64,000 nt of DNA from Candidatus Gottesmanbacteria bacterium UBA6580 (GCA_002433895.1 DJJA01000003.1:107185-171184), one strand, 5' to 3'; numbered from the stretch's first letter, positions 8,572 to 42,951 are shown. Program-made: numbers and translations. The notes: generated by a model not told the origin, from the sequence alone.

Positions 8572-8582
8572 TGGTTTTTTTG

Positions 8583-9581
8583 TTACAACGCGGAGACGAT
8601 TGTGGTGGTGCGGAGCAACGCCGACCCCTCTGTTTCTTCTGCAGACCCCTCAAAGACAAAGACTGGGATAAGATAGTTCTGGAGCGCAGAATAGAAGTAT
8701 CCAAGTGAAACATCGGTAATTTTGATAGCGCTTGGGGCCTCTCCCGTCATAAACTTCTGGTCACCCTGTTTTGTTAAAGAGACGCTGGAAAGCACCCCTC
8801 TGTTTGCCCGCAAGCGGGACACGGCTTCACTATAGGGGACAATCGCGAGGTTTTGTTCAGTGCGTGACACATCTGGTAGTATAAAACCGAGAATTTCGGT
8901 GATGGCGCCGTCACCGTTGATGCTTGCCGAAAAAACGGGCGTGTTTGCGTCGTTTACGTAGAGAGGAATACCATCGAGCGTAACGGTATAGTTTAGACGC
9001 GTAATAACTGCCCCTTGGGGACCGGTTAATTCGGTTGGGTGGGGATCATTAAAAGACAAAAACTGTTGGCTGAGTAGCGTTGTCGTGTAAGGAGCGGGAA
9101 GCACAGAGAGCTCAGTAAGCGCGCTTTGTACTAGTGAGGAGTATGTGTTGAGATCGTTTGAAACAAACCTTCCCGACGTGCTCGCTATCTGAAACGCGAA
9201 AGAAAGCGGGTTTTCAGAGATCAGTCCTGACCTCCCGTTCTGCGAAAAACTTGCATATCTCCCTTTTGATCCGGCTATAACGTTGGGGATAGCGCTGGGA
9301 GCGTAAAGCGCAAACAAACGGGAGCGCTCAGATTCAAAGCTTCTTACGCGGGTTATTTCGTAATATGGCACGCTCGTGGGGAACGTTGCCTCTATGTCTC
9401 CGGAGTAGGTGATAAAGCCACTTGAGAGCGGCTGTGGCATAACCGATGGATTAATGGGTGAAGGGGTAATAAGTTGTGTTTGTCGGCCGCCTTGGGGCAC
9501 CGGAGATCTTTGTATGACTAGCGCCCCGATAAGTAGGAGAAGAAAAACAGTAAGCCCGATAATAATACGTTTTTTATTCAT
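8583..9581 (-). CDS. secreted / membrane-anchored hypothetical protein, last gene of the T4SS-like operon
   Basis: Likely start MNKKRIIIGLTVFLLLLIGALV (signal/anchor) at 9581, directly abutting the stop of the upstream M23 gene (9583); Ser/Thr-rich, beta-rich; no motif recognised. Confidence 0.45.
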   Translation of the reverse strand: MNKKRIIIGLTVFLLLLIGALVIQRSPVPQGGRQTQLITPSPINPSVMPQPLSSGFITYSGDIEATFPTSVPYYEITRVRSFESERSRLFALYAPSAIPNVIAGSKGRYASFSQNGRSGLISENPLSFAFQIASTSGRFVSNDLNTYSSLVQSALTELSVLPAPYTTTLLSQQFLSFNDPHPTELTGPQGAVITRLNYTVTLDGIPLYVNDANTPVFSASINGDGAITEILGFILPDVSRTEQNLAIVPYSEAVSRLRANRGVLSSVSLTKQGDQKFMTGEAPSAIKITDVSLGYFYSALQNYLIPVFVFEGSAEETEGSALLRTTTIVSAL

Positions 9582-9582
9582 A

Positions 9583-11742
9583 TTATTGACACCCCGGAGG
9601 TAGCGGAATAGGAACGTTTTGGTTTGGTCCTTTATACCCCCAATGTAAATGCGTTCCTGTGCCTGGACCGTTGTTGCCATAAGTATACCCTGTTGTATCA
9701 ACATACCCAATAACAGTGCCGGCAGGGATAAGCGTTGGTGAGCCGGAGTTTGCTGCAACCACTGGTGACACATCTAGTAAATGAGCATAATTTGTACAAT
9801 ATTGCTGTTTTGTGGAGGGGTCGGTCGCGACAAGCACCACATTGTTTCCGTAACTTGCCGCCTTGTATTGATACGGTAGATAAGAGTTTGCGTATGAGGC
9901 GATATAGGCGTCGTGAGCTGCAACCACCGGCGTTCCCTGTGCTGCAGCAAAATCCCATGCATTAAGCGTTTTATGAGATCCCGTTGAGGTGAACGGCCCC
10001 TGGCTAATCGGCGCGCGTACCGGGCAAGTGGTGATAGGGGCGACCGGCGAGGTTCCACTCCATACACAACTAAACGTTGTTACATCAGCCGCAACCTCAT
10101 TTATTTCTTGTTTAAGATTTCTCAGTGATGCGAGGATGGCACTCACTTTGGCGCTATGTGAAATAAGGGACAAATTAAGCGGCGAAGGAAAGACAAATAA
10201 AAATATAAGCGCAACAATGACGATTATCGATACGAGAAGCGGCATGTCCTGTCCCATGGGGATGGGAATAGTGGCCGCCCTTCTGGAGCTAGAGAGCTGA
10301 CGGGGGATAAGGGGGTTCGTTAAGAAGAATGACGCTGACCGGTCGACAAACGCGCCTATAGCGCCGCCGACGGCGTTATTAAGCGCGCTTAGTCCAAACC
10401 ACGGGAAAAATGAGGCGCGCACCTTTCTTTTTTGCCGTGCCGTTTTTACGGCCGCCGTCTCGGTAGCGCGAAACACGTCCCACGGGGCAATAGTTGAAGG
10501 TAAGAAGTTCCTTCCTTTTGGTGACGTGGCACTTGCGCGCGCAAGCTCGAAATAATCAAGGACGCGCTCTTTTGTGCCATGAGTAAGAACCGGGCCCAGC
10601 GGCCCCCGGAACACCGAAGAAAACACGTCGCTTACCAGTGACCGTGCCTGTCCCGATTGTTGTCTTTCAGATAGTTGGTGGGTAAGATTTTGAGATATAT
10701 TCGTGAACAATGCGCTATGGACAAAATTTTCTCCAAGCCGGTCAGTAAAGCTTTGCGCGCTTGTTAACATTGATCTGAGCGTGCCATTTACTTTTTCATG
10801 GATAATCATTTCCCGAAGTGGTTCTCCCACAAGAGATAAAACACCATCGGCTCCCTGTTGGAGCCCCTTCGCCGCCCCTTTTGCGTTTGCCGCAGAGAAA
10901 AAGTTTAGTCCACCGTTCCTTTCTTGTTTTGCCTCGAGCGATTCGGCGATGTGCGCCAATTTATTTGCCCGGGCAAGCGATTCGGCGGTTGTTTCAGAAG
11001 GGGGGGCGTTTAACACCACATCGACGAGCACGTCGGGGCGCTTCATATCAATATCGTCATAGAGCGCTGTCGTGAGCGTCGCGGCGCGCTTTGCCTGTTG
11101 TGTGACGCCCGAGACATACGCATTGTTCGCTTCAAGGACGTCGTTAATGGTTGTTTTTAACTGGGCTGCCTGTTCCTGGGTTAATGTGCCCCCGGTTATT
11201 GCGTTTGAGGCAAGTATAAGTTCTGCAAATCTTTCTTTTGTTTGTTGCTGTGTTGCTTCTCCTGATGCTGCGATGAGGGCGCTGTCGGCAACAGCACCCA
11301 CCCGGTCTTCGGAAAGCGTGGGCATGGTCGAGCTAAACCGCGTTACCAGATCATGAACAAACGCGCGCCGCCGCTCTTTTTGACTGGTAACCGAGGTTGC
11401 TGCAGCCTGTTTTATGCGCGATGAGGCGTATTTCCGCACTTCACCCACAGCTTTCACCTCGTTTTCCAACAGCGCTTGGTCGGGAAGTTGCGATTGAAAA
11501 TTAGGGAGTTCTTTTAGTTTTTCTGAGCCCCGGGAAACAATTTCCGTAAACACCTTAACCAATTCGTCTTCCCCCATGATCTCTGCCTGCCCCAGAGATG
11601 TTTTTTGCTCCTCTATGAGTTCCCGAAGATATGAATACTGGCTTGCCGCGGCAATCGCTTCGTATATAGAAATGCTCCCCGAAGCGACGTCAGATAGTAG
11701 GTTATCAGCAAATTCACGGAGCGTTTGAGGATCGTTTGCCAT
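9583..11742 (-). CDS. T4SS-associated cell-wall hydrolase: large helical N-terminal domain, single TM, C-terminal M23 (LytM-type) metallopeptidase
   Basis: C-terminus carries the M23 signature (AWDF, HDAY, YGNNVVLV, YAHLLDV, GTHLHWG = HxxxD ... HxH); TM helix MPLLVSIIVIVALIFLFVF at about aa 495-515; N-terminal 480 aa helical with no motif. Confidence 0.6.
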   Translation of the reverse strand: MANDPQTLREFADNLLSDVASGSISIYEAIAAASQYSYLRELIEEQKTSLGQAEIMGEDELVKVFTEIVSRGSEKLKELPNFQSQLPDQALLENEVKAVGEVRKYASSRIKQAAATSVTSQKERRRAFVHDLVTRFSSTMPTLSEDRVGAVADSALIAASGEATQQQTKERFAELILASNAITGGTLTQEQAAQLKTTINDVLEANNAYVSGVTQQAKRAATLTTALYDDIDMKRPDVLVDVVLNAPPSETTAESLARANKLAHIAESLEAKQERNGGLNFFSAANAKGAAKGLQQGADGVLSLVGEPLREMIIHEKVNGTLRSMLTSAQSFTDRLGENFVHSALFTNISQNLTHQLSERQQSGQARSLVSDVFSSVFRGPLGPVLTHGTKERVLDYFELARASATSPKGRNFLPSTIAPWDVFRATETAAVKTARQKRKVRASFFPWFGLSALNNAVGGAIGAFVDRSASFFLTNPLIPRQLSSSRRAATIPIPMGQDMPLLVSIIVIVALIFLFVFPSPLNLSLISHSAKVSAILASLRNLKQEINEVAADVTTFSCVWSGTSPVAPITTCPVRAPISQGPFTSTGSHKTLNAWDFAAAQGTPVVAAHDAYIASYANSYLPYQYKAASYGNNVVLVATDPSTKQQYCTNYAHLLDVSPVVAANSGSPTLIPAGTVIGYVDTTGYTYGNNGPGTGTHLHWGYKGPNQNVPIPLPPGCQ

Positions 11743-11747
11743 AAAGG

Positions 11748-13664
11748 TTAGCCGGTTTTATTGGTTTGTACGGTTTCGACAGTGAAAATAGGACGATTTG
11801 ATTTCGGAAGCGCAGTCGCTTCCTGTGTCACCGGTTGGGCGTCGTGTTGAGGCGCCTGGTTTACCCCCGGTTTTTCCGCGAGCGCCTCTTGAGGTCTGGT
11901 GGTTGCAACCTCGTGTTCCTCTGGGCTTGCGATGACCCGCATGGCGGCATGCGCGGGACCCGCAAAAAATAACCCTTGTCCCACGTCTGCCGCAAGAAGT
12001 AGGTGTTTTTCTCCTTCAGAAAGATAAAACACCTGCGCGATTGTATCAATCGCCGCAGAAGACTGTTTGAGTAAAATTTGCATACTGCTGTTTTGAATAA
12101 TCGCCTTGCCCATTTCTGTTGCAAGAAAATCTTCCACATCTTGTGTGATGGTTGTAAGCCCAAGATAGTATTTGCGCGCCCGCTTCGCGATACCGTAGAG
12201 AAACTGTGCAGAATCTGGATATTTCATAAGGTACCACGCTTCATCCACGATAAGTAACCGTCGGCGTTTGTTATATCTGATTTTGTTCCAAATAAAATCC
12301 AGGATGAGATACATGGCAATGGGCCGCAGCTCATCTTCCAGATCGCGGATAGAAAACACCGTAAGCTGGTTTCTGATTGCTACATTTGTTTGTTGATCAA
12401 AAATACCCACAAGGCTTCCCCGGACAAATTTTTCTATTCGGTCGGCGAGTCCTTTCGCGAGCACCTCTTCCATGCCGACAAGCGTTTTGTATAAATCCTC
12501 CATTAGTGGTGGCTCTTTTGAGTGTGTGGAGGGGTCGGGGGTAATCCCTTTTTGTTTGTAAGTTAATATAATCGCGCGATCAAGCAACGCATCTTCTGTG
12601 GGGGTGAGCCTCCCCATTACCACCCGGAAAAATCCATGAAGCGACAATATTTTTTGACCCAACTCGCTTTCGTCGTTGCTGCCCCCAGACAGAAGCGCAA
12701 GGTCAAACGGATTTATTTTTGTGGACGATCCGAAACGGAAGCGTATATATTCGCCCCCCAGTGTGTGGGTAAGATTTTCATATTCGTTTTCCGGATCAAT
12801 GATAATTACTTCGGTATCAAACATGAGGCTCCGCATAACCTCAAGCTTCACCATGTAGCTTTTTCCGCCTCCTGACTTACCAAACACAACCGAATTCGCG
12901 TTTTCGAGAGTAAACCGGTCAAAAATAATAAGCGAATCGTTGTGTTCGTTGAGACCATAAAGAATGCCTTCGTTTGCTGTAAGCTCACTTGTCGTGAACG
13001 GGAATGTTGTGGCAAGCGACGTGGTGTCCATGTTTCGTGTTACCACGAGCCGGTCTTTTCCTGTGGGAAGCGTTGTTTTTAGCCCCTCTTCCATCTGAAG
13101 GATGGCTTTTTTCGTGACAATGAGTAGTGATCCTAGTGTTGCTTCCACCTGTTTCGTCGCTTTATCAAGATCCTCGCGGGTTTTAGCGGGGATAGTGACA
13201 TAGAGACCAAATTGGAAAAAGCGCTCAGAGCCTTTTGCCAACTCTTGTTGAAGCGCTAGCGCGTCTTCCAGCGCAACCTGGACTGATGGTTCAATAACGC
13301 GTCCGCGTTTAAGGTCGGACTGTATCGTTGCTTCCATTTCTCCAACTTTGCGCTTAAGGTTTTCGAGAATTTCCTCGCTTCTCGTGGGGTAAATATACAT
13401 GGAAATATCGAGCGTGTGATTAAATGAAATAAGCGGCTCCAGCCAGTTTGCCGAAACAAAACGGGGGTAGCCCGCTACAAAAAGCGTCCGGTAGTACCAG
13501 TCGCCAACCTTAAGCAGGTCAAAATCTACTTCGATTGCGGGCGGCGCAATAACATCAGTAACGGTTAGAGGTTTTTGCCTGAGCGATGCGGCTCCACCCT
13601 TCGGTAGGGGCGGGGACCCCACCATTCGTCCTAGTAACGATGCGATATTTTTTGAATTAGACAT
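11748..13664 (-). CDS. VirB4/TrbE/PrgJ-family type IV secretion ATPase
   Basis: Walker A VVFGKSGGGKSYMVK, Walker B LLIVDEAWYLM, later IITQ motif; N-terminal region like Gram-positive VirB4 homologues; start MSNSKN (13664) is preferred because it just overlaps the upstream gene end. Confidence 0.8.
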   Translation of the reverse strand: MSNSKNIASLLGRMVGSPPLPKGGAASLRQKPLTVTDVIAPPAIEVDFDLLKVGDWYYRTLFVAGYPRFVSANWLEPLISFNHTLDISMYIYPTRSEEILENLKRKVGEMEATIQSDLKRGRVIEPSVQVALEDALALQQELAKGSERFFQFGLYVTIPAKTREDLDKATKQVEATLGSLLIVTKKAILQMEEGLKTTLPTGKDRLVVTRNMDTTSLATTFPFTTSELTANEGILYGLNEHNDSLIIFDRFTLENANSVVFGKSGGGKSYMVKLEVMRSLMFDTEVIIIDPENEYENLTHTLGGEYIRFRFGSSTKINPFDLALLSGGSNDESELGQKILSLHGFFRVVMGRLTPTEDALLDRAIILTYKQKGITPDPSTHSKEPPLMEDLYKTLVGMEEVLAKGLADRIEKFVRGSLVGIFDQQTNVAIRNQLTVFSIRDLEDELRPIAMYLILDFIWNKIRYNKRRRLLIVDEAWYLMKYPDSAQFLYGIAKRARKYYLGLTTITQDVEDFLATEMGKAIIQNSSMQILLKQSSAAIDTIAQVFYLSEGEKHLLLAADVGQGLFFAGPAHAAMRVIASPEEHEVATTRPQEALAEKPGVNQAPQHDAQPVTQEATALPKSNRPIFTVETVQTNKTG

Positions 13665-14319
13665 TTGATTCCTTTCCAAGACTTAACATAGTAACGTCTG
13701 GCGGCGGATTTCCCGGATTGTACATACTGAAAAACAGTTTTACGAGTGCATCAGAGTTAAGTTGTACTGCGTGTAACCCAACTCTCGCGAGCAACCGCAC
13801 AAGGTGATCTCTTTTGGGGAGAAGCACGGTTTGCGCACGGTCGTATATATATGATTTTTCGTAAGGTAGCCCGCCCTTTTTGGGTCCGAATAAAAGTGTA
13901 GAAGATACGCCGAGCTCCACGCTGGAAAACGGAAGGACTATATAGAATTTTTTGTCGAGCACATCCTTTTCTTTTACCATAGACGCGACAAACAGCCGGT
14001 ATCCATGAATACTCTTTGTAAGTTTCGGGTTTTTTTGACGCGCCTCCTGATCTTCGAGCAGCTTGAGGTAGGCAGAAATGTCCTTGTGTTTTGTCTGAAT
14101 AAGAATTTGGATAGGAAATGAAAGGGAGTTGAGTAATCCCGCATACGCGTAAATAATTGCGTCCTGTTCTTTTTCAGAAAGCAGGCCGAAATTGACCGCC
14201 GTTGTGGCAATAACGAGCGAGACTGATCCATCAGCAAACATAACAAGATCACGGTCAATATCGACAATTTCCGTAAATACTTGTGTGGATGCCCGTATGG
14301 GTGTAATTGGTTCTGCCAT
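13657..14319 (-). CDS. hypothetical T4SS operon protein
   Basis: ORF between the PrgI-like gene and virB4; preferred start MAEPITPIR at 14319 (the alternative at 14385 would overlap the upstream gene by 60 nt); no motif. Confidence 0.4.
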   Translation of the reverse strand: MAEPITPIRASTQVFTEIVDIDRDLVMFADGSVSLVIATTAVNFGLLSEKEQDAIIYAYAGLLNSLSFPIQILIQTKHKDISAYLKLLEDQEARQKNPKLTKSIHGYRLFVASMVKEKDVLDKKFYIVLPFSSVELGVSSTLLFGPKKGGLPYEKSYIYDRAQTVLLPKRDHLVRLLARVGLHAVQLNSDALVKLFFSMYNPGNPPPDVTMLSLGKESNV

Positions 14320-14323
14320 ATAA

Positions 14324-15652
14324 TTAAACGGATGTTTTTCCGAAAATTTCCTGGGCGAGCTTTTCGCGCGTGAGCACCTTTTCACTTTTAGCGATTATTT
14401 CGAGTACGGGAACGACCGTGCCATTGAGGGTGATCTGTACCCTGGTAAAAGTAAATCTTCCCCGCGGGTCTTCTATTTCTACAAAGTACACGCCGCTTGT
14501 AAGTGGTGTTGACGCGGCAAATTGTCCGAGCTTGTTTGTTTTGAGCGCGCGCATGGGCACCCCCTCACCGTTTGTGACAGTAACAAGAATGCCGGGCAAC
14601 AAGTTGCCTACGTCATCTTTGACAAGGCCAGTGATCACATTTGGCGCGTTCGTCAGACGCGGTAGCCCCACCTTTACCGCCCCCTCCTCAGTTGTAATGA
14701 CATTAACTGTGCCGCGGGACGACCCCGCAAGGCTATCTTCCCGAGGGGTCGTTGCCCGGGGTGATACTGGCTGTGGCGGAGCCTCCCTGCGTTTGAGTGC
14801 GACCAACTGCTCTTCTGTGTTTGTTTTTGCCGCAAGTGTTTCGGTGAGTTGTTTTTGTAATTCAAGTACCCGCTCTTCCGTCATGGTTTTTGTCGCAAGC
14901 TTTGCTTCGAGAGCCGCGAGGGTTTCCTCAAGCTGTTTAATTTTCTGCTGTGTTTCCTCACTTACCACGCTAGAGGTGGTCTGAGGCGCAGGTGGCGGTG
15001 GCGCCTCGACGTGTTGACCGGTAACCGATGGAACCGGACGCGCAACGGGTGGAGCGGGAGTTGGATGATGTGCGGGTGCTGCTACATGTTTTGGACGGAA
15101 CAAAGACATGATTTCATCGATAAGTGTTACGTGTGGTTTCTGTGCATGCACAGTCATTGGAGAAGTGGGGTGGGGCGTTTGCTGGGCGCCGGCATTTCCC
15201 GGCTGAAACAAGTCAGAAAGCGCGCTTTTCGGGTTCGTTTGTGGTGCTGTTGCGGGTTTTGCCGCTGGTGTCTGCGGAGGGATGACAGGAGCCGCTGACA
15301 CAGCGGCAGCAGGTTTGTTGCCCTGAGGCGTTGGCGGTGCCTTGGCGGCGGGAGGCGTCATTGATGCTTCATGTGACCAAATGTATTGTGTGGGGTTATA
15401 GATGCTTTTAAAGAAAGAAAAAACCCACACATCCATCGGCCGCTCCTCGATTGGGATAAAAGCAAACCCTATACCTAAAAAAGCGAACGCACCGGTAAGC
15501 GGCCAGGTGATAATAAAAGGGAGGGGTAGTTTATACGCGATAAACGCGAGAATTGCTCCGGCACACAAGTAGCCGAATTGTTTCAGCGTCATGTCGCCGA
15601 TCAGCCGAAACTGAAACGTCGTAACATTTTGAGGGACAGGATGTTGTTCCAT
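14324..15652 (-). CDS. PrgI/VirB3-like membrane protein fused to Pro/Ala-rich linker, coiled coil and C-terminal carboxypeptidase-regulatory-like / Cna-B-like beta-sandwich domain
   Basis: N-terminus NVTTFQFRLIGDMTLKQFGYLCAGAILAFIAYKLPLPFIITWP with two TM helices resembles PrgI-family (VirB3 analogue) proteins; then a PAAKAPPTPQ-type low-complexity stretch, a heptad coiled coil (QQKIKQLEETLAALEAKLATKT...), and C-terminal GILVTVTNGEGVPMRALKTNKLGQFAAS..GVYFVEIEDPRGRFTF typical of CarbopepD_reg-like folds. Confidence 0.55.
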   Translation of the reverse strand: MEQHPVPQNVTTFQFRLIGDMTLKQFGYLCAGAILAFIAYKLPLPFIITWPLTGAFAFLGIGFAFIPIEERPMDVWVFSFFKSIYNPTQYIWSHEASMTPPAAKAPPTPQGNKPAAAVSAAPVIPPQTPAAKPATAPQTNPKSALSDLFQPGNAGAQQTPHPTSPMTVHAQKPHVTLIDEIMSLFRPKHVAAPAHHPTPAPPVARPVPSVTGQHVEAPPPPAPQTTSSVVSEETQQKIKQLEETLAALEAKLATKTMTEERVLELQKQLTETLAAKTNTEEQLVALKRREAPPQPVSPRATTPREDSLAGSSRGTVNVITTEEGAVKVGLPRLTNAPNVITGLVKDDVGNLLPGILVTVTNGEGVPMRALKTNKLGQFAASTPLTSGVYFVEIEDPRGRFTFTRVQITLNGTVVPVLEIIAKSEKVLTREKLAQEIFGKTSV

Positions 15653-17967: not shown

Positions 17968-18522
17968 ATGAATATAGGACTGTTGGGAGGCGCGTTTAAC
18001 CCGCCGCATTTTGGCCACCTCATGATTGCCCGCCAGGTGTTGGATTTTACCGATACAGACGAGGTGTGGTTTTTGCCTAACTTTGGCCAGATTCCTCCAA
18101 AGCCTGTGGCTGGTGTTGCTGACCGGCTTGCGATGACGAAGTTATTACGGCTTCCAAAAACACGGGTGTCCACGATAGAGATAGACAATTCGCTTGATGG
18201 GGACACGATCCATTTGCTTCCGTATTTGCCCAAAGAGCATAATTTCCGCTTTATTATCGGCTCCGACCAGCTTCCGACGTTTCACTTGTGGGGACGGTGG
18301 GAAGAGTTGCTTCGTTCAATGCCGTTTTTAGTGTTTCCAAGGTATGGGTTTCCCAACGAGCCGTTGTATCCGAACATGACACTCGTTTCTAACGAGCTGC
18401 TTGTGGGAACGAATATTTCATCGACAAAAATCCGCAAGCGGGTTGAGCGCGGGTTGTCCATTGAGGAGTTTGTGCCCCCCAACATTGCTTCGTATATCAC
18501 CTCACATGGGTTATACCGATAA
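17968..18522 (+). CDS. nadD: nicotinate-nucleotide adenylyltransferase
   Basis: GGAFNPPHFGH (HxGH nucleotidyltransferase motif) and ISSTKIRKRV (ISST motif). Confidence 0.85.
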   Translation: MNIGLLGGAFNPPHFGHLMIARQVLDFTDTDEVWFLPNFGQIPPKPVAGVADRLAMTKLLRLPKTRVSTIEIDNSLDGDTIHLLPYLPKEHNFRFIIGSDQLPTFHLWGRWEELLRSMPFLVFPRYGFPNEPLYPNMTLVSNELLVGTNISSTKIRKRVERGLSIEEFVPPNIASYITSHGLYR

Positions 18523-18609: not shown

Positions 18610-21600
18610 ATGGCAAACGAAGAATTATTCAAACGGTTGAGTGAAGCAGCCAAAAAAGCAGCGGAGGGTGGCGGACAGCCAAAGCCGCCAGAGGCCCCGC
18701 CGCCACCAGAAGCTCCCGAAGTGAAGCTTGGAGAGCACAATAAGCAGGCCGGTGCAAAAGAGGTCAATAAGGAGCGGGTCGCAAATCTTGCGGCAAAGCT
18801 TGCTGAGGCAACCTCAGAAACCACAAAACGCCTTGTGGGAAGCGAAGTTGATTTTCCGACCGACGAGCGGGTATTTTCTGTCATCGAATCCCTGATTACC
18901 GCCGATGAGTCGCAGCTTGCGGATCCGGAATACATGCGGGGCATCGGGCAGCAGTTGGTGGCATTGGCAAAAGAGTCGGGGCTAACAAGCCCGACCGCGG
19001 TTGAGGCGCGGCGGTATTTACGGAAAATTGTCGCCGAACACCCGAGTCTTAGTGACCTACAGTATGAAGCTGTACCTATTATAGCTGGGGGATCGGGTAA
19101 ACCGGATGAGGAGGCAAACGACGAAGCGACCGTGGACAAGGATCCGGAACTGACCCAAGAGGTGGGTAGATTATTTAATGAGACCGCTGACACCGATCTA
19201 AAAGACACAGCAATTGCCTCTGACTTGCAGGAGCTTCAGTACCGTTTCCGTGTAGATCCGGGAGCCGCATATGACAGTAGGCTTACCGATGATGCGGTGC
19301 GACGCATGGTTGAAAAGGGGAGGCGCGAAGGGCTTGATCCAAAGCTGGTACAGAAAGCAGTGGAGCGGGTGCGTTATTTTGAGCGGTTCACCGACTTGCG
19401 GCACCAGAAATATCAGGAAAAGCTCCGCGGCGGAAGGAGCGTGGCCTGGTCAGAAATCATGGAAAATTCCCCACAGAAGTCGTTGCACGAGCCGGATGAC
19501 GTGTTTACCGATTTCCGATCCATGCCGCCTGCTGATGTAGAAACCATAATTCAGGGGGACGAGGGCGAGGCGAAGTGGTATTTCGATTTTATTGACCAGA
19601 TTTATTCCATGGGACGGGAAGAAACCCGGCCAAGCCTCACCCATGAACAACGCTTTCAGGAGTTTAAAGATTACCTTGTGTGGAAATATGGTAGTGAGTA
19701 TCACATCGCCGTGCAGATGTATCAGAAGCATTGGGATAGCCGCGGACAATATGAATATGCAGTTAAAGGACTCATGTATAACCCGGGCGACGTGAAAGAC
19801 AGGTTAAAGGCGATGTCGTTGTTGCAGGGGGCTGATCTTGACCACCTTTATAAAAACTTTGACCACTCAAACGAAGCATATAGCTTGTACGAACACGTAT
19901 TGTTTGAGCTTATGGCAACCAAGCGCGCGAAATACGGAGAGGCGCTAAAGTATTTGCGCGAAGACATCACATGGAACGGGAAAACCATGAAGCGCGAAGA
20001 CATCCTCAAAGAGCTCAAAGCGAAGCAGCGGATGGAGGGCTATGACCCGACCAAAGGAAAAACACAAAGTCCTCTCTCTATTGAGGATCAGCGGTTGATG
20101 CACGAAATACAACAGCAGATGGATTTAGCGGCGGAAGGTGTCATGTTGTGGGATGACGACGTGCAAAGTTATACCGAGTTACACATCACCCTTACCAAAT
20201 TGCGGAATAGCCGTGAGCAGCTTCTCAAAAAGAAGAGTGCTGGTACCGCGCTTACTGAAAAAGAGGCGGACCAGCTCGGTGAAATTGACAGGCTATATCA
20301 GATCTATTCCCACCGGGAAGAAATGCTTAATGAAAATTTTACCCAGGAGCTATTGGAAACGCGCGGACTTTCCCCGGTCGACATTGAGGTTCGCAAGCGG
20401 TTGGTGGGCTACCTTAAAGCACAGCATCCGGAAGACCCGAACTACAAACCGGCTGAATATGAAGTCCGTATGGCGTTATGGGCATCACGGACCGCCATGA
20501 TTGGCTCAGGACGCATGGCGATGATTGGCGCCATGATGTCGGTGCCTCCCGCTGTCGAATACGGGACATCGTCAGGTAAGCACGTCATGCGCGCGCCGGC
20601 GTTTGAAGATATCCAGCGTATTTTTAATCCGGAAACATTTGCTACCCGTTTTAATATCGGTGGCGACATGGGTATTACCGCGCGGAGCATATTCCGAAAA
20701 AACTTAATGAGAACGAAAGGGATTAATCCTAAAGAGCCTGGATGGTTTAAGAAAATGTCCGGCGCCGCAGAGAGTTTGGGGCGTAAGTTTAAACTCACCA
20801 AAACGAAAGAATGGCATGAGGCGAAGCATCATGAGCATGACAAGCAGCGGCAGCAGTCGATGGAAACATGGGAGTTTGCCGAGGACGCAACCGGTATATC
20901 ATTTAGCGAGTTGTTGGGTCCTGGATTTATGGCAAGCGGAGGATTTTATGATGGAACCGCGTGGCGTCTGGAAAAGGGAGTGGCAGACGAGCTTCGTGGA
21001 AAAATGCTAAGTCTGAAAAAATTGCCCGAAAACGCCGCGCTTTTGGATAATCAGGCGCTTTCTATACAGCTATTGACCGCGGGAAATGCCGCAGAACGCA
21101 AACCAATACTCGACCGCATGCTGCGGCGGAACCCATCGAAGTTTTTGGAGTTGTTGGAGGAAGATACAGAGCGCATATTGACGAAGAATAAGGTGACACA
21201 CGAAGAGTGGAAGAAGTTTAAAGAAGCACTTTCTCTTGCTGAGCTTAAGATGGCTCACGAGAAAGACTGGCAATTTGCACGTATAGATCTTGCTGAGAAA
21301 AAAGATTTTGATGCATTGGTGGTGCCATATCTCAACATATTGAAGCTTGACCCCGCGCGGAGTGAAAGTCTGCGCCAGGTGATCGTCGATATGCAGGCCG
21401 AAATATATCGCGGCCGCAAAGTTGATGCTTCAGGGGGCACCTTTAATAATAAAATGGACGCTATTGCCGCGCTCAAACTTCCACTCACCATGAGCTTGAC
21501 CGACTTTGATTGGAAAGAATCCAACTTTTACCAACTTGGTACCGTTGCTATGCACCGTCGTATTCGAGATGTCGGCGCACAGATGCGTGCCCGTGACGCG

Positions 21601-22221
21601 ATGCTTGGGTTTTTCTCGAATGAAGAGATGGCGCTCTCACCCAATGACTACACGAAATCGCTGCAAAAGATTATGGAGGTGCGCACCGCTATCGTCGATT
21701 ACTCAGGGCCGGATGCTGCGGAGGCGACCGCAAAAGAAATGTTACGGGTATTTTTTGAGATGAACAGACACAGAAGTCTTGGAAGCATTGCCTGGATACC
21801 GGGACTGACGGGGCTGTTACAGCACTGGGAGCCTGATTTCCGGGGGCTCGAAAACAACAAACTTATGCAGTTGCTGATTGGCAAAGAGCGGTGGCAGCAT
21901 TTAGCGAAAGAAAAGATTTCCCATTGGCCACATTCGGTGGCCGAGGCGATTTCATATTCTACGCGGTACACGGGATCACATGGAAATGTGTGGGATGAGG
22001 CCAAGATGGCGGAAATATTGCACACCGCGCATGATATGGGACTGTTTATTAATCACCCTGAGTACCTCAAGGATCTGGAAAAAGAGTTCAAAACCAGCGC
22101 GACGCACCGGTTGAGTGCGTTGTACCGAAAGTATTGGTGGGTGGTGCTCGCTGCGACGGTTGCTATAGCCATAGAGCGGGCGACGAAGGAGCAGGAGAGT
22201 GGGGGCGGAGGAGGACATTAA
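18610..22221 (+). CDS. large (1203 aa) helical protein of unknown function with Pro/Ala-rich N-terminus and C-terminal TM helix
   Basis: Uninterrupted 3.6-kb ORF; N-terminal QPKPPEAPPPPEAPE; predominantly charged/helical; C-terminal YWWVVLAATVAIAIERA hydrophobic helix followed by a GGGGGH tail; no catalytic motif recognised. Confidence 0.5.
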   Translation: MANEELFKRLSEAAKKAAEGGGQPKPPEAPPPPEAPEVKLGEHNKQAGAKEVNKERVANLAAKLAEATSETTKRLVGSEVDFPTDERVFSVIESLITADESQLADPEYMRGIGQQLVALAKESGLTSPTAVEARRYLRKIVAEHPSLSDLQYEAVPIIAGGSGKPDEEANDEATVDKDPELTQEVGRLFNETADTDLKDTAIASDLQELQYRFRVDPGAAYDSRLTDDAVRRMVEKGRREGLDPKLVQKAVERVRYFERFTDLRHQKYQEKLRGGRSVAWSEIMENSPQKSLHEPDDVFTDFRSMPPADVETIIQGDEGEAKWYFDFIDQIYSMGREETRPSLTHEQRFQEFKDYLVWKYGSEYHIAVQMYQKHWDSRGQYEYAVKGLMYNPGDVKDRLKAMSLLQGADLDHLYKNFDHSNEAYSLYEHVLFELMATKRAKYGEALKYLREDITWNGKTMKREDILKELKAKQRMEGYDPTKGKTQSPLSIEDQRLMHEIQQQMDLAAEGVMLWDDDVQSYTELHITLTKLRNSREQLLKKKSAGTALTEKEADQLGEIDRLYQIYSHREEMLNENFTQELLETRGLSPVDIEVRKRLVGYLKAQHPEDPNYKPAEYEVRMALWASRTAMIGSGRMAMIGAMMSVPPAVEYGTSSGKHVMRAPAFEDIQRIFNPETFATRFNIGGDMGITARSIFRKNLMRTKGINPKEPGWFKKMSGAAESLGRKFKLTKTKEWHEAKHHEHDKQRQQSMETWEFAEDATGISFSELLGPGFMASGGFYDGTAWRLEKGVADELRGKMLSLKKLPENAALLDNQALSIQLLTAGNAAERKPILDRMLRRNPSKFLELLEEDTERILTKNKVTHEEWKKFKEALSLAELKMAHEKDWQFARIDLAEKKDFDALVVPYLNILKLDPARSESLRQVIVDMQAEIYRGRKVDASGGTFNNKMDAIAALKLPLTMSLTDFDWKESNFYQLGTVAMHRRIRDVGAQMRARDAMLGFFSNEEMALSPNDYTKSLQKIMEVRTAIVDYSGPDAAEATAKEMLRVFFEMNRHRSLGSIAWIPGLTGLLQHWEPDFRGLENNKLMQLLIGKERWQHLAKEKISHWPHSVAEAISYSTRYTGSHGNVWDEAKMAEILHTAHDMGLFINHPEYLKDLEKEFKTSATHRLSALYRKYWWVVLAATVAIAIERATKEQESGGGGGH

Positions 22222-22264: not shown

Positions 22265-23872
22265 TTAGTGGCCGCTGCCACCACCAGTAATGGAGCTGAG
22301 GCCTTTATCAGCGCCCTCACGCGCAATTTGCATCGGCGTTCTCGCTTCCGGCTTGTGGCGGAATGCGCTTGCGATAAAGCTCGCCTGATATCCTAGGTTA
22401 AATAGCGTGCCGACTCCTGATCCCAACGGGCCAACGATAGGTCCGATGCCGCCCGGTACGACCGGTTCTGCCTTAAGTGATTTCTGTAGTCCGGCAACAA
22501 TCGTCGGGATAACCATAAGCATGCCTAGGCCTATAAGACCCGCCATGCCATATGTTCCTTCACCCGTTGAAAGTAGGGGAGGCGCCCAAATAGATGTTGC
22601 GGTGTCCTGAGACGTAAGCACCGCGGTGATGAGGAGTAAGAGCACAGTGATAGGAAATACCAGAATTTTTGATAACAAGTTCCGGAACCACGAGTTAAAC
22701 GCGTTTGTTCCAGGAATTGCCTCCATCATCAGCTGGAACGGGGCGGTGAGCAAGGCGATAATGATGTTAATGTAGGCGTCCAAAAGCATAAAGATAAGCC
22801 GGATGACGCCGAAAAGCAAAATGATAAGGAAGATAACCGCAAGCAGCACCGGGCCGCTTGTTAATCCTAATAATGCCCCGCGTAAACCAAACATATAGCC
22901 AATAACTCCGGGAACCACTGTCCAGCCAGCCACTTTCATCGGATCATTCTGTGTAATCATGGTTCCGATATCGTCATATGCCTGAAAGCCGCTGGCAAAA
23001 AAGAACCGTAGGAGCCCGCTAACGCCACCGTTTAAAAGCAGTCCCGTGGCGTTATCCGGATCTGATGTTGTTGATGGAGCAGAAAAGCTCGGCGGCAATA
23101 AATCGATGTTGAGCGTAGTTGCGAGACTTAATAGTCTACCAAGGTTTCCACCTGACGCGCTGTCTACCGCGGAAGCTGAAAGCACGATGGCAAGATACAT
23201 AAGGTCAATCATGGCTCCTACTATGGCATAGGAGAAGGTGACGAGTCCCAACGCTATGACAATTCTCGGGATGGCATTTTGCACGGTAACCACAGTTTTC
23301 GGGTCAATTTTTTTCCGGAACATCACCATGAAGCCAACGACAATTATAATTGCGGCAAGCAGCGCGTAGGCGATGTTCCGAAATGTTTTCCAGAGAGGTA
23401 GCATGCTTTGGAGTCCGGAAAAACCAATGCCCTGCGCTTCTGCTTTGGGCGGCATAAATCCGAGCGTTCTCCCGACGTCCGCAATATATTCCGAGCTCCG
23501 TGCGGGAGGGTGTTGATACATCGCAAGCGTGCTCCGAGCCATGCCTGCAAGCGCGCTTTTTTGATAGCTTAGTCCGATAGGACAATCCGGATATGCAGCG
23601 TCACAGAGTCCGCGAAATCCCACGAGGAGTTGTACCTGGGCGATAGTGGAAGTGCCGGCGTCCCCAACTTGTTTATTAAGTGCTCCCACTTCCGCGGCCT
23701 TCATAAATCCTGCGATGACGCAGTTTACGTCCATAAACCATGTTGCATCATCACATTCATTTGCTGTTGTGGTGGCGCTATCTGCTCCTTGTGCCAGAGC
23801 GGGCACGGGAATAGCAAGAAATACCACAGCGGCAACAATGAACGCCCAAACATACGTTTTGATACGCGACAT
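22265..23872 (-). CDS. VirB6/TrbL-like polytopic T4SS inner-membrane channel protein
   Basis: Signal peptide MSRIKTYVWAFIVAAVVFLAIPVPALAQG, Cys-containing N-terminal periplasmic segment, then at least 7 hydrophobic helices with long Gly/Ala-rich TMs; terminal gene of the pilin array. Confidence 0.5.
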   Translation of the reverse strand: MSRIKTYVWAFIVAAVVFLAIPVPALAQGADSATTTANECDDATWFMDVNCVIAGFMKAAEVGALNKQVGDAGTSTIAQVQLLVGFRGLCDAAYPDCPIGLSYQKSALAGMARSTLAMYQHPPARSSEYIADVGRTLGFMPPKAEAQGIGFSGLQSMLPLWKTFRNIAYALLAAIIIVVGFMVMFRKKIDPKTVVTVQNAIPRIVIALGLVTFSYAIVGAMIDLMYLAIVLSASAVDSASGGNLGRLLSLATTLNIDLLPPSFSAPSTTSDPDNATGLLLNGGVSGLLRFFFASGFQAYDDIGTMITQNDPMKVAGWTVVPGVIGYMFGLRGALLGLTSGPVLLAVIFLIILLFGVIRLIFMLLDAYINIIIALLTAPFQLMMEAIPGTNAFNSWFRNLLSKILVFPITVLLLLITAVLTSQDTATSIWAPPLLSTGEGTYGMAGLIGLGMLMVIPTIVAGLQKSLKAEPVVPGGIGPIVGPLGSGVGTLFNLGYQASFIASAFRHKPEARTPMQIAREGADKGLSSITGGGSGH

Positions 23873-23909
23873 AGTGTAATTATCCGTGATACATTCCGCT
23901 AAAGTCAAT

Positions 23910-24221
23910 CTACTGGGTTATTGTAAAGTCGGTAACTGTGACACCAGTAAATTTTTCTATAGTGAGAATAATAAGATAGGCGACCGACATAAGAATTATT
24001 CCTGCGATGGCCTGGGTGACTGATCCTTTGGCTGCCTCTAGCTTTTTTTGGTCGCCGGCAGAAAACAGGAAATTAAATCCGCCAACAAGAAGCATGACAA
24101 ATAACGCGACCGCGCCTAGTGATACCACTGCCCGAATAACGCCGGTAACAAGGGGGACAATACATTGAATAGAAGCGACACCTTCGGCTCCCGGTATGTT
24201 TGCGCACGCGTCAGAGTTCAT
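23910..24221 (-). CDS. T4SS pilin-like protein (VirB2/TrbC-like two-helix pilin), paralog 1
   Basis: 103 aa, two hydrophobic helices separated by the conserved FSAGDQKKLEAAK..ITQAIAGIILM loop shared by all paralogs. Confidence 0.6.
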   Translation of the reverse strand: MNSDACANIPGAEGVASIQCIVPLVTGVIRAVVSLGAVALFVMLLVGGFNFLFSAGDQKKLEAAKGSVTQAIAGIILMSVAYLIILTIEKFTGVTVTDFTITQ

Positions 24222-24288
24222 ACTGCTATTATACGAGTATCAGAAGAGGGGTGACAAGCACACTTTTCTGTTTTATACGCTTCGTGTT

Positions 24289-24618
24289 TTAGTAAGGCTT
24301 CGGGAAATTAATTGAGCCGCCAATGATCTGGACGCCCAAGAAGTTTTGGACGAGTGTCATAATGGCCCAAGCAGCGCCCACAATGATGAGTCCGACGATT
24401 GCATGGGTAATCTTATTCCGCGCTTCTTCCATGCCTGCCTTGTCGCCACCTGAGGTGATCCATTTAATACCTCCCAAAATGAGGTAAAGAAATGCCAAAA
24501 GCGCTGCGATAATAAGCACGGTTCCGACAAGCGCGCTGATAAGCTTGCCAACATCGGTAATTTTAATGGAATCCGGCTGCTTAATATCTAATGCGGCCTG
24601 GGCAAATACTTTGTTCAT
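24289..24618 (-). CDS. T4SS pilin-like protein, paralog 2
   Basis: 109 aa; GGIKWITSGGDKAGMEEARNKITHAIVGLIIVGAAWAI core between two TM helices. Confidence 0.6.
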   Translation of the reverse strand: MNKVFAQAALDIKQPDSIKITDVGKLISALVGTVLIIAALLAFLYLILGGIKWITSGGDKAGMEEARNKITHAIVGLIIVGAAWAIMTLVQNFLGVQIIGGSINFPKPY

Positions 24619-24703
24619 AAATGAATCCTTTCGTCAAATCAATACAGCCTTTATTATACCATCATTTACCATTTTTGCGCAACAAAACAAGATTTGTCAA
24701 TCC

Positions 24704-25048
24704 CTAGTTAGTGATTGTTGGGATAGGGAGATTCGGGAAATCGATACCAAAAAAGTTACCCACAATCATCATGACTGCCCAGGACGCGCCCACCACGACC
24801 AACCCGACGAGCGCGTTGGTAATTTTGTCACGGGCAGACTGAAGCTTTGTTTTGTCGCCGCCACTTGTTACCCAGTCAAATCCACCGAGGAGCATGTAAA
24901 GAAGAGTAGAGATAAACGCCAAGATAAGGAATAAACCAACAAGCGCGCTGATCAACGAACCGATAGCCAGCGGACCCACTTCGTTGCCGCCTTGCCCGAG
25001 ATTACCGGGAAGAACGGGATTGACGATTTGTGCGAGGTGTCTATTCAT
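24704..25048 (-). CDS. T4SS pilin-like protein, paralog 3
   Basis: 114 aa; GGFDWVTSGGDKTKLQSARDKITNALVGLVVVGASWAV core. Confidence 0.6.
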   Translation of the reverse strand: MNRHLAQIVNPVLPGNLGQGGNEVGPLAIGSLISALVGLFLILAFISTLLYMLLGGFDWVTSGGDKTKLQSARDKITNALVGLVVVGASWAVMMIVGNFFGIDFPNLPIPTITN

Positions 25049-25050
25049 GG

Positions 25051-25416
25051 TTATTGGTTCGGACTGAGTAGTTCCATCAATCCGCTCGGATCAGACAGTG
25101 TGAAGTCAAAACCAAAGAATGTGCTGGCAAGCGCAAGTATTGCCCAGCCAGCGACAACCACGATAAGCCCGACAAACGAGTTGGTAAGCCGGTCTTTTGA
25201 GCTTTGGAGCTTTGCTTTATCTCCGCCGGAGTTAATCCAATTAAATCCTCCAATGACAAACTGAAATAGAAACCATATACCGGCAGCGACGGTCATGATG
25301 CCAATAACAGAAGACACAACCTTGGTAATGCCGGTAAGCCCGTCTCCTGGCGCGTTGCCGAAAGGCCCCAAGCCTTCACCGCCAATTTGTCCTAATTCAA
25401 GCGCTAAGTATTTCAT
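25051..25416 (-). CDS. T4SS pilin-like protein, paralog 4
   Basis: GGFNWINSGGDKAKLQSSKDRLTNSFVGLIVVVAGWAI core; start MKYLALELGQ at 25416 is preferred because it abuts the upstream gene stop (25418). Confidence 0.55.
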   Translation of the reverse strand: MKYLALELGQIGGEGLGPFGNAPGDGLTGITKVVSSVIGIMTVAAGIWFLFQFVIGGFNWINSGGDKAKLQSSKDRLTNSFVGLIVVVAGWAILALASTFFGFDFTLSDPSGLMELLSPNQ

Positions 25417-25417
25417 G

Positions 25418-25777
25418 TTATTCGTTTGGCCCGTAAATTGTCGGATTGAGAATAAAATCCGCCCGTCCAAATATGAGATGCCCAAATAGCGAAGCTATGG
25501 CAAATGATCCAACAATGATAACGAGACCTAAGAGTGATTGCCATATGCGGCTCCATGCCTCAGCAAGTTTTTTGCTGTCGCCCGCGGCGTTCATGTAGTT
25601 GTAACCGGCGATGATGAAATTAAAGAGTGCATATATGCCTGCGGCGACAAATGCCAAGCGGAGGATGTTCGTGATAAACATGCCGACCGCACCGGTTTGT
25701 ATGCTGCCATACCCGGTGCCCGACAACGGGCTTTCTATTGATCCGACGATGTCTCCAACTTGCGCCAATTCTTTCAT
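25418..25777 (-). CDS. T4SS pilin-like protein, paralog 5
   Basis: 119 aa; AGYNYMNAAGDSKKLAEAWSRIWQSLLGLVIIVGSFAI core. Confidence 0.55.
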   Translation of the reverse strand: MKELAQVGDIVGSIESPLSGTGYGSIQTGAVGMFITNILRLAFVAAGIYALFNFIIAGYNYMNAAGDSKKLAEAWSRIWQSLLGLVIIVGSFAIASLFGHLIFGRADFILNPTIYGPNE

Positions 25778-25784
25778 ACAATAA

Positions 25785-26132
25785 TTATTGCGGGCTCAGT
25801 ATGTTTAGACCGGTGATGACCTCTATGATTTGTATGATCCAAAATGAACCCAATACGATAAGAAGTCCCGCTATCGCGCCGGTGAGCGCCGTTTTGCCTT
25901 GCTGCGCTTTTTTTGCGTCTCCCGCGGCTACTATAACGTTAAATCCGCCGAAAATCAACAAAATGAAGCTTAAAATACCAGCAAGCATGAAGGCATTTTT
26001 TACGATGGCGGTCACCAGCATGCCGAAGTTGGTCAAATTCGGATTAGGTGCTAATTCCTGTAATGACTGGGCAAACACGCGTTCAAGCATACATTCATAT
26101 TTAAGTGTAAGGAATTTGCCCGGGTCAGTCAA
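25785..26132 (-). CDS. T4SS pilin-like protein, paralog 6 (first gene of the array)
   Basis: GGFNVIVAAGDAKKAQQGKTALTGAIAGLLIVLGSFWI core; an alternative start MLERVF lies at 26090. Confidence 0.55.
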   Translation of the reverse strand: MTDPGKFLTLKYECMLERVFAQSLQELAPNPNLTNFGMLVTAIVKNAFMLAGILSFILLIFGGFNVIVAAGDAKKAQQGKTALTGAIAGLLIVLGSFWIIQIIEVITGLNILSPQ

Positions 26133-40234: not shown

Positions 40235-40690
40235 ATGAAGATAGTAAACAAAAAAGCATTGTTTGATTACCAAATCCTCGATCGGTTAGAGGCAGGAGTG
40301 AGCCTCACTGGAGCCGAGGTAAAGTCGTTGCGCAGCGGTCACGCGAAGCTCGACGGTTCATTTGTGCGTATTATCGGTACGGAAGCGTACCTTATCAACG
40401 CACAGATATTTCCCTATACCTACGCCAGTCCGCCAGCTGGCGGAGGAACCTATGACCCAAAGCGCACACGGAAGCTACTGTTTCACCGGAAAGAGCTCGT
40501 AAGCCTAAAAAGCAAGATAGATGGCGCTAATTTGACCCTTATTCCTCTGAGCTGGTATACTAAAGGCCCCTTTGTGAAGCTCGAAGTAGGACTTGCCAGA
40601 GGCAAGAAACAATACGAAAAACGGGAGAAAATGCGTCAGGATGTGCAAAAAAGAGAGCTTGAGCGGGACTTCCGGGGGAAAGTGAAATAG
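40235..40690 (+). CDS. smpB: SsrA-binding protein
   Basis: MKIVNKKALFDYQILDRLEAGVSLTGAEVKSLR ... LVSLKSKI; canonical SmpB. Confidence 0.9.
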   Translation: MKIVNKKALFDYQILDRLEAGVSLTGAEVKSLRSGHAKLDGSFVRIIGTEAYLINAQIFPYTYASPPAGGGTYDPKRTRKLLFHRKELVSLKSKIDGANLTLIPLSWYTKGPFVKLEVGLARGKKQYEKREKMRQDVQKRELERDFRGKVK

Positions 40691-41107
40691 GGGATGCATC
40701 AGATCGACGATGCGGGCACGTTAAAAAACAGCAAGCCGGCGATGACAAAAGAGCCGCAAAAATTATTGTCAATTATAATTGCTAATACACTTAGCGAGCT
40801 TGAGGAAAAGTACGCCTACCTTGTAGAACGGCTTATGCTCAAGCGATCACAGTCAGCTTACGCTTACGCGTACGCCAACTAAGATCCATCCCGATTATTC
40901 TTTCGTCTGGTGAGGATTTTTGGGGTGTAAACAAAGCCAGGCCGTCAGGTTACTCATGATCGGGAGTAACCGGAGTATTATTTCGATCAACCCTCTAGAA
41001 AAGTATTTGTCCGCTTTTTTCTTTTCTAGAGAACTAAACGGACTACGCTTGTAGAAGTTTTTGATGTACTCCTTCGGACCCGGGCTCAACACCCGGCATC
41101 TCCACCC
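40690..41107 (+). ncRNA. ssrA: transfer-messenger RNA (ssrA)
   Basis: 5' GGGGATGCATCAGATCGACGATGCGGG resembles the E. coli tmRNA 5' end GGGGCUGAUUCUGGAUUCGACGGG; 3' end TCGGACCCGGGCTCAACACCCGGCATCTCCACCCA gives a T-arm (CCGGG/CTCAACA/CCCGG) and an acceptor strand CATCTCC pairing with GGGGATG including a G3:U70 wobble, discriminator A; a GCCGCAAAAA element about 65 nt from the 5' end as in E. coli; begins at the last nt of the smpB stop codon. Confidence 0.75.
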
Positions 41108-42660: not shown

Positions 42661-42682
42661 GGGTTTTACATGGTGTGTATTT

Positions 42683-42928: not shown

Positions 42929-42951
42929 CTGATACATACGCGAAGCAGGAG

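Follow-up and report, generated by a model that had tools for sequence, protein, structure and literature searches.

Patescibacteria carry chromosomal type IV secretion systems (T4SSs) of an MPF_FATA-like type (Wang et al. 2023, PMC10633639; Quinonero-Coronel et al. 2025, PMC12102498), which are essential for the epibiotic growth of the cultivated representatives and mostly lack relaxases (PMC10633639, PMC12102498). Only components for which homologues are known appear in the inventories of both studies, and a gene that matches nothing in Pfam, NCBIfam or TIGRFAM is left in grey. In the present work a 64-kb stretch of DNA (64,000 nucleotides, hereafter the window) from Candidatus Gottesmanbacteria bacterium UBA6580 (GCA_002433895.1 DJJA01000003.1:107185-171184) was analysed, in which a T4SS locus of this kind harbours an open reading frame (ORF) for a protein of 1203 amino acids. 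We use for it the working name BIG (18610..22221, plus strand), and residue numbers given below refer to the BIG protein. Because its slot in the locus is constant, its confidently predicted all-helical fold is unmatched and its tail appears to be membrane-anchoring, BIG probably represents a component of the T4SS machine that has gone unrecognised, or its cargo.

As in the published Patescibacteria systems, the locus comprises genes for VirB4, a TrsD/TraC-like protein, a PrgI-like protein and an M23 hydrolase together with tandem genes for divergent VirB2-like pilins. Likewise dnaA and dnaN adjoin it, and no relaxase was found among the 20 locus genes scanned, which do not include every ORF of the window. 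The features by which PMC12102498 recognises this T4SS type, namely VirB4, TrsD, VirB3/PrgI, a VirB2-like pilin array, a cell-wall hydrolase and nearby dnaA/dnaN, are all present. Judged by its gene content, the locus is therefore a relaxase-less, MPF_FATA-like, origin-proximal Patescibacteria T4SS, its position next to the replication origin following from dnaA and dnaN just upstream. The type IV coupling protein (T4CP) gene lies inside the cluster here, an arrangement which the 2025 survey has for only 148 of 5,713 T4CPs (PMC12102498). Furthermore, the locus differs from the inventories of PMC10633639 and PMC12102498 in its 1,200-residue gene product, which is not described there.

The BIG family and its genomic context

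BIG has an ATG start, supported by the invariance of M1 and E5 in 27 orthologues, and is a genuine gene rather than a chance ORF, since its full-length orthologues are 45-96% identical and its ratio of nonsynonymous to synonymous substitution rates (omega) is ~ 0.016. The original prediction for this DNA had noticed a very large ORF inside a T4SS-like locus, and its coordinates, length and placement all hold. Homologue searching yielded 41 protein clusters of 1185-1246 residues which match BIG end to end at 45-96% identity, and a repeat search with a diverse alignment returned the same 41 proteins and nothing more. When 1.84 billion representative proteins were searched with a profile, the family comprised 108 members, about 65 of them full-length (1130-1590 amino acids), and those from named organisms belong to Patescibacteria, mostly to Ca. 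Gottesmanbacteria. None of the 108 carries a protein name beyond "hypothetical protein", and a scan of six of the longest distant members showed no credible Pfam domain.

Within GTDB, BIG was found in 17 species. A membrane protein gene convergent to BIG and the pilin array lie downstream of it in all 17 loci, and in the 13 loci with an upstream flank VirB4, TrsD and PrgI are found every time and the T4CP in 12. The same arrangement is displayed by three distant representatives with long flanks (L020, L022 and L023), whose BIG proteins are 23-30% identical to that of the window. The nadD gene, which stands between the T4CP gene and BIG in the window and in most lineages, is absent in L020 and is joined by an NAD synthase gene (nadE) in L022 (7560-9704) and L023 (8614-9947), and it is thus regarded as a variable insertion. 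In L022 an IS200-type (Y1_Tnp) transposase is also found beside nadD and nadE. From the T4CP side, a metagenome scan gave 80 loci, in 20 of which a BIG family member lies just downstream; T4CPs of at least 64% identity are mostly located in T4SS loci, some contigs being too short to show a further T4SS gene. Hence, in every locus with readable flanks (17 GTDB species, 3 distant representatives and 20 metagenome loci) the slot of BIG is unchanged, and every locus examined has one copy. The link to the T4SS locus, for which co-occurrence across related genomes had been suggested as a check, is borne out by this recurrence of the same slot.

BIG and the T4CP gene are on the same strand, and in L020 BIG directly follows the T4CP gene with a gap of 50 bp. 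No convincing promoter or terminator was seen in the interval between nadD and BIG, the scan giving nothing above background, and BIG is probably co-transcribed with the T4CP gene.

Predicted fold and sequence layout

With 42 close homologues, an AlphaFold2 (AF2) prediction of the whole protein gave a poor model (mean predicted local distance difference test, pLDDT, 59.8; predicted template modelling score, pTM, 0.30), on which a Foldseek search is meaningless. With 64 diverse sequences and residues 296-1203, which include the core, the anchor and the tail, the values rose to a pLDDT of 87.4 and a pTM of 0.88. DSSP assigned both AlphaFold models almost entirely to helix, in agreement with the helical protein of the original prediction, and in the core model the helices pack into a compact all-alpha structure that includes two small hairpins. 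A self-comparison with hhalign revealed no internal repeats in BIG, which excludes a solenoid. Foldseek returned no match of the core model in the PDB (best E 0.18, TM-score ~ 0.09) or in BFVD (best E 8.5e-3, TM-score 0.13). The structure prediction and remote-homology searches proposed earlier thus led to a confident helical fold without a relative by profile or Foldseek search, and as modelled the fold has no known relatives among the databases searched (PDB and BFVD).

In an alignment of 60-64 sequences at 19-66% identity, eight core residues are invariant (E666, R670, F681, G688, R786, R983, D987 and P1064), five of which are charged, and N673, W785, R840, D965, R984, Y1031, E1038 and N1052 are near-invariant. 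A compact, non-repetitive core with these five charged residues would point to a particular surface for interaction or activity more readily than to a generic spacer.

The remainder of the protein is less uniform. BIG has no signal peptide, its N-terminus being charged and helical without a hydrophobic leader, and most of the distant members have, as judged by eye, an amphipathic helix comparable to that of BIG in their first ~ 30 residues. The Pro-rich N-terminus noted previously corresponds to residues 21-37, a linker where conservation is lowest, gaps are most frequent and the pLDDT is below 50; across the family this linker is of low complexity and often Pro- or charge-rich. Residues 38-295 are less conserved than the core, and in the majority of distant homologues the alignment does not begin before about residue 120-290.

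C-terminal segment and tail

The sole markedly hydrophobic stretch in BIG lies near its C-terminus and consists of residues 1175-1188 (YWWVVLAATVAIAI), a run of 14 residues with 15 more after it. The best 19-residue Kyte-Doolittle window of the protein (residues 1170-1188) has a mean of 1.3, which is under the usual cut-off of 1.6, so that a transmembrane (TM) segment is probable here rather than certain. Of the single C-terminal TM segment announced by the original prediction, the one conserved hydrophobic segment at that place therefore stands, while the score falls short of the cut-off. The residues R1173, W1176 and W1177 are near-invariant. Nearly all full-length family members have the hydrophobic stretch, and their C-terminus reads in the order R-K-Y-W-W, ~ 14-18 hydrophobic residues, an acidic/basic cluster (EEEKK-like) and a short tail. 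Given a C-terminal anchor and no signal peptide, BIG would be a tail-anchored protein with its bulk on the cytoplasmic side.

The protein ends in ...ESGGGGGH, and the poly-Gly-His tail described beforehand is correct as regards a Gly run followed by His (five Gly and one His), there being no run of His. Of 64 family members, 33 end in His. Tails made of a Gly run and a His are seen both on BIG (...SGGGGGH, 22201-22218, plus strand) and on the convergent membrane protein of 547 amino acids (...TGGGSGH, 22265-22285, minus strand). Among window ORFs of at least 60 amino acids only these two have such a C-terminus, and in the ~ 23-kb loci one further ORF, short and located in L017, has it, which we take as a chance match. 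Across loci L001-L017 both orthologues keep the Gly/His tail in most Gottesmanbacteria-clade loci in which the gene end is present, the tail being looser in L008 and absent in L010. It is common to both proteins only in the Gottesmanbacteria clade, the 547-residue partner losing it in distant lineages. An inverted repeat or terminator at the DNA level was considered as the source of the two tails and is ruled out, because their codons differ. One may speculate from the sequences that the tails are a common docking peptide, for example for the M23 peptidase of the locus, which belongs to a Gly-Gly-specific family.

Searches for known families and motifs

Pfam and NCBIfam gave no family for the whole of BIG (E ≤ 0.01-0.1), nor for four sub-fragments of it at E ≤ 10. 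PADLOC, with its anti-phage defence models, also gave none, and PHROGs gave two insignificant matches only (E 0.034 and 0.063); scans of the distant and positional relatives of BIG against family libraries showed nothing significant either. Among PDB sequences there was no match with the single BIG sequence or with a close-family profile, and the only matches of a diverse profile, to designed helical repeats, fell on its low-complexity N-terminal columns. Walker A, LPXTG and DDxxD motifs are absent from the BIG sequence, and no H-hydrophobic-H (HUH) motif occurs anywhere in it. An HExxH at residue 736 was rejected as a functional motif, as it is not conserved in the family. The absence of recognisable catalytic motifs claimed for this ORF is thus confirmed by the Pfam, NCBIfam, PADLOC, PHROGs, PDB and motif scans, and clear homology to a housekeeping family unrelated to secretion, which was also looked for, was not found.

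Selection and divergence

Nonsynonymous substitution rates (dN) and omega were computed against the closest orthologue (L002), and since even this pair has a synonymous rate that is saturated or almost so, the omega values are rough. BIG (dN 0.033, omega 0.016) is close to the T4CP (0.031 and 0.015) and VirB4 (0.018 and 0.013), with higher values for nadD (0.060 and 0.042) and HMG-CoA reductase (0.093 and 0.061). Within its clade BIG is hence as constrained as the ATPases and under strong purifying selection. Between clades, the window proteins were compared with those of L020, L022 and L023, and identities amount to 74-76% for VirB4, 69-71% for the T4CP, 39-72% for the pilins, 36-40% for the 547-residue membrane protein and 23-30% for BIG.

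Gene order and neighbouring genes

The features of BIG and of its locus are collected in Table 1. The order of the M23/VirB4/TrsD/PrgI operon is unchanged in all related loci. The T4CP has no TM segment, no hydrophobic window reaching 1.6, and in place of the usual TM domain there are ~ 330 N-terminal residues (DUF8128 in related loci). The 547-residue protein, which always adjoins BIG, has a signal-peptide-like N-terminus and about 6 hydrophobic segments. It matches no Pfam or NCBIfam family even at E ≤ 10, and for this reason VirB6 is a name that we infer for it. Hence the location given by the original prediction, between T4CP/nadD and a VirB6/pilin operon, is right as a position and the VirB6 label in it is putative.

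The second pilin (24289-24618) is 66-83% identical in the distant loci L017, L020, L022 and L023, whereas the remaining five reach only 39-65%. The M23 peptidase, a bitopic protein, consists of an N-terminal region of ~ 500 residues, one strong TM segment at residues 500-518 and a C-terminal M23 domain, and its gene is the fastest-evolving one of the cluster. Its ORF overlaps a 396-residue ORF (8583-9773) by ~ 190 nt, and one of the two starts is therefore probably located further downstream. Past the pilin array there are genes for an extracytoplasmic function (ECF)-type sigma factor, Yip1 and the mevalonate pathway, and downstream of the region a transfer-messenger RNA gene and six tRNA genes (40690-41107 and 42570-52652) represent ordinary chromosomal content.

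Table 1. Features of BIG, of the surrounding T4SS locus and of the ORFs found in the BIG slot elsewhere (window coordinates unless a locus is named).
Feature	Position	Strand	Basis or remark
dnaA	5865-7283		Upstream of the T4SS genes
dnaN	7465-8571		Upstream of the T4SS genes
Divergent operon M23 / VirB4-like / TrsD-TraC-like / PrgI (VirB3)-like	9583..15652	-	Pfam and NCBIfam
M23 peptidase	9583-11742	-	
VirB4-like ATPase	11748-13679	-	
TrsD/TraC-like protein	13657-14385	-	
PrgI (VirB3)-like protein	14324-15652	-	
T4CP-like ATPase, 728 aa	15775-17961	+	DUF87, TrwB_AAD_bind, TraG-D_C (Pfam); VirD4-like NCBIfam matches
nadD-like nucleotidyltransferase	17968-18522	+	CTP_transf_like; nested between T4CP and BIG
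BIG, founding member of an unannotated Patescibacteria family	18610..22221	+	ORF, homologues, no family matches
BIG residues 1-20, N-terminal amphipathic helix, MANEELFKRLSEAAKKAAEG	18610..18669	+	77% mean column identity in the close clade
BIG residues 21-37, Pro-rich low-complexity linker, GGQPKPPEAPPPPEAPE	18670..18720	+	Sequence
BIG residues 38-295, variable helical N-terminal region	18721..19494	+	pLDDT 70-85 mostly, whole-protein model
BIG residues 296-1174, predicted compact non-repetitive all-alpha core	19495..22131	+	AF2 model, invariant columns
BIG residues 1173-1188, R-K-Y-W-W motif and probable hydrophobic C-terminal anchor	22126..22173	+	Hydropathy maximum, conservation
BIG residues 1189-1203, short charged tail ending GGGGGH	22174..22218	+	Sequence
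Polytopic membrane protein, 547 aa, candidate VirB6 analogue	22265-23908	-	Convergent to BIG; ends ...GGGSGH
Six VirB2-like pilin genes	23910-26132	-	PF18895 T4SS_pilin match for all six
First pilin gene	23910-24221	-	
Second pilin gene	24289-24618	-	
Four further pilin genes	between 24704 and 26132	-	
ECF-type sigma factor, Yip1, mevalonate pathway			Past the pilin array
Positional analogues of BIG	L027 14562-18842; L104 3019-7077; L081 3927-7118; L040 4855-8514; L031 5602-9225		

Discussion

The reading which we favour, with a rough probability of 0.4, is that BIG is a lineage-specific, tail-anchored, cytoplasm-facing accessory subunit of the chromosomal MPF_FATA-like T4SS of Microgenomates-group Patescibacteria. 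It is based on the invariant position of the gene, its probable co-transcription with the T4CP gene, its single copy, its ATPase-like constraint within the clade and its specific, non-repetitive fold. Further support comes from the Gly-run and His end which BIG and the adjoining membrane protein have in common in the Gottesmanbacteria clade. Indeed, the T4CP of this locus, being without any TM segment, needs a link to the membrane. We infer a topology, physical contacts and a platform role as follows. BIG would be made without a signal peptide and would enter the producer's own membrane by its C-terminal R-K-Y-W-W and hydrophobic anchor, leaving the all-alpha core of ~ 900 residues and a flexible N-terminal arm, with the amphipathic helix at its end, on the cytoplasmic side of the machine's base. 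Such a platform could position or regulate the soluble parts (the TM-less T4CP and/or VirB4), or the substrate, with respect to the channel and the pilin array.

Several observations weigh against an accessory subunit. Firstly, L017 has a BIG protein (45% identical) and no T4CP in the 23.5 kb examined, and T4CPs of at most 61% identity, which are also without TM segments, sit away from T4SS genes with no BIG nearby. As T4CPs of the same type thus exist without BIG, and a BIG locus exists without a T4CP, the simple idea that BIG is the anchor of the T4CP is weakened. In L017 the interval between the PrgI-like gene and BIG holds no T4CP, and nadD is found there (8286-10001) with a 258-residue ORF which has the size and position of nadE in L022 and L023. 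Secondly, nadD, nadE and, in L022, the IS200-type transposase can sit inside the cluster, so that position alone is not proof of a T4SS role. Thirdly, the hydrophobicity of the anchor is only moderate, and PDB sequence searches and Foldseek searches of the PDB and BFVD gave no sequence or structural relative that would provide a functional precedent.

Finally, the divergence of BIG between clades exceeds that of every other T4SS gene except the M23 protein, and in at least five loci the slot is filled by an ORF of 1066-1435 amino acids which the hidden Markov model (HMM) of the BIG family does not detect (Table 1). The T4CPs of these loci are 68-83% identical over the aligned part, those of L081 and L104 being partial fragments. 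The positional analogues have the same layout as BIG, in that a helix at the N-terminus is followed by a linker, and a hydrophobic segment near the C-terminus by a short tail. The analogues of L027, L104 and L081 form, together with P0143, a second group called BIG-2, the BIG family itself being BIG-1. Comparison of the two with hhalign gave a weak collinear match over R..D, Y.G and N-R motifs (probability 13.5%, E 0.002), and no link between them emerged from iterative HMM searches; consequently, a homology of BIG-1 and BIG-2, as far as their sequences tell, is unproven. An analogue in the same slot is a pattern also expected of a host-facing protein.

As the main rival explanation, BIG could be the cargo of the T4SS, recruited by the T4CP through its charged C-terminal tail, translocated and anchored in the membrane of the host bacterium. 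This role, which corresponds to the secreted substrate or effector of the original prediction, we consider rather unlikely although several features speak for it. T4SS export signals are typically C-terminal, and BIG has no signal peptide and a C-terminus made of a hydrophobic segment followed by an acidic/basic cluster; a tail anchor, however, would normally commit a protein to the producer's own membrane, and the tightly packed core of 900 residues (pTM 0.88) would need unfolding for export. Cys is almost absent from BIG (none in 1203 residues, and 0.06% across the family as against 0.7% in the long ORFs of the window), but this argument is weak since VirB4 (none in 643 residues) and the T4CP (one in 728) are equally Cys-poor. 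The steep divergence between clades, with a barely related protein in the slot of some lineages, agrees with cargo; the constraint within the clade, which equals that of the ATPases, does not, and being universal in the locus and single-copy BIG is unlike typical effector repertoires. Its gene lies beside that of the T4CP, as those of substrates and relaxases often do, and adjacency of T4CP and relaxase genes has been noted (PMC12102498). Moreover, most T4SS clusters of Patescibacteria are relaxase-less and of unknown substrate (PMC12102498, PMC10633639).

A broader proposal, which we hold to be unlikely, treats the slot between the T4CP and the channel and pilin genes as the place of a new class of large, tail-anchored, all-alpha T4SS proteins of unprecedented fold, constrained within lineages and remodelled between them (BIG-1 and BIG-2) as a host-specific element. 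If this were true, the class would represent either a protein which is translocated and becomes inserted in the membrane of the host or a determinant of what is transferred, and the missing substrate or adaptor of the relaxase-less Patescibacteria T4SSs would thereby be supplied.

It is improbable that BIG is instead a novel all-alpha enzyme or membrane-proximal factor for a linked step, such as pilin, lipid or envelope processing at the cytoplasmic face. The invariant polar residues E666, R670, R786, R983 and D987, which hold across 60 sequences, the near-invariant N673, W785, R840, R984, E1038 and N1052, the compact and non-repetitive fold, and the genes for the mevalonate pathway and a polyprenyl synthase, which the same syntenic block includes at a distance of a few kb, would all suit such a role. 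However, no enzyme family was matched by sequence or by fold, the closest Foldseek hit in the PDB being the one already given, and an enzyme would not usually diverge so rapidly between clades over most of its length.

Equally improbable in our opinion is a lineage-specific, membrane-associated housekeeping protein, for example an envelope or division scaffold, which would be unrelated to secretion and lie by descent in a syntenic origin-proximal block. These genomes indeed share synteny over the whole stretch extending from dnaA/dnaN to the mevalonate pathway by way of the sigma factor and Yip1, so that the conserved position of BIG is in part phylogenetic inertia, and the cluster also has the housekeeping genes nadD and nadE within it. 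Against this explanation, nadD and nadE come and go, whereas the place between the T4CP side and the membrane-protein/pilin operon remains occupied by BIG or a positional analogue, and the BIG family is found only in this kind of locus. It is also very narrow (the 108 representatives mentioned above) and diverges between clades much faster than housekeeping genes.

The searches lend no support to the other candidates. The relaxase or primase surrogate contemplated by the original prediction has no support, for BIG has no relaxase domain match and no HUH motif, matches no TOPRIM, AEP, polymerase or nuclease family, and is predicted to be all-alpha (helices and two small hairpins in the core model) and membrane-anchored. 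A surface fibre, another role contemplated there, is not supported either, in view of the lack of a signal peptide, of LPXTG and of internal repeats and of the compact core. A VirB4/VirD4-type ATPase was discarded, as BIG has no Walker A or P-loop family match and neighbouring genes have these domains, and so was a VirB6/TrbL/PrgH channel, BIG having one hydrophobic segment only instead of at least 5 TM segments and the 547-residue neighbour fitting better.

Comparison with known systems

TssL and DotU (IcmH) are tail-anchored subunits of the membrane complexes of the type VI secretion system and of the Dot/Icm T4SS. By analogy, and if its topology is as proposed, BIG would resemble them in that it lacks a signal peptide, exposes an all-alpha domain to the cytoplasm and is anchored once, at the C-terminus. 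It differs from them in being about six times larger, in its extra N-terminal arm and in the absence of any sequence or fold relationship in Pfam, NCBIfam and Foldseek searches, and membership in the TssL/DotU family was rejected, there being no Pfam match and no Foldseek match in the PDB.

Adaptors and receptors of T4CPs offer a second comparison: DotM, DotN, IcmSW and LvgA serve DotL, and membrane partners have been proposed for the TM-less T4CPs of Gram-positive plasmids. BIG may be likened to these, as it is encoded with an anchorless T4CP, is predicted to be helical, is lineage-specific and would be placed where the channel opens to the cytoplasm. No homology to them was found, however, T4CPs of the same type have no BIG beside them elsewhere, and in one BIG locus the stretch examined is without a T4CP. 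As for conjugative relaxases (MOB) and primases, their sole likeness to BIG consists of a position beside the T4CP and a large size; BIG is distinguished from them by having no domain match and no HUH motif, by its all-alpha prediction and by its probable membrane anchor.

On the basis of the sequences compared, the locus belongs to a known type of Patescibacteria T4SS, and BIG belongs to no known family. T4SS inventories based on homology miss conserved, lineage-specific components, and BIG is a concrete candidate for a missing part of the system, be it a platform, an adaptor or cargo, and a lead on what the relaxase-less T4SSs of Patescibacteria do.

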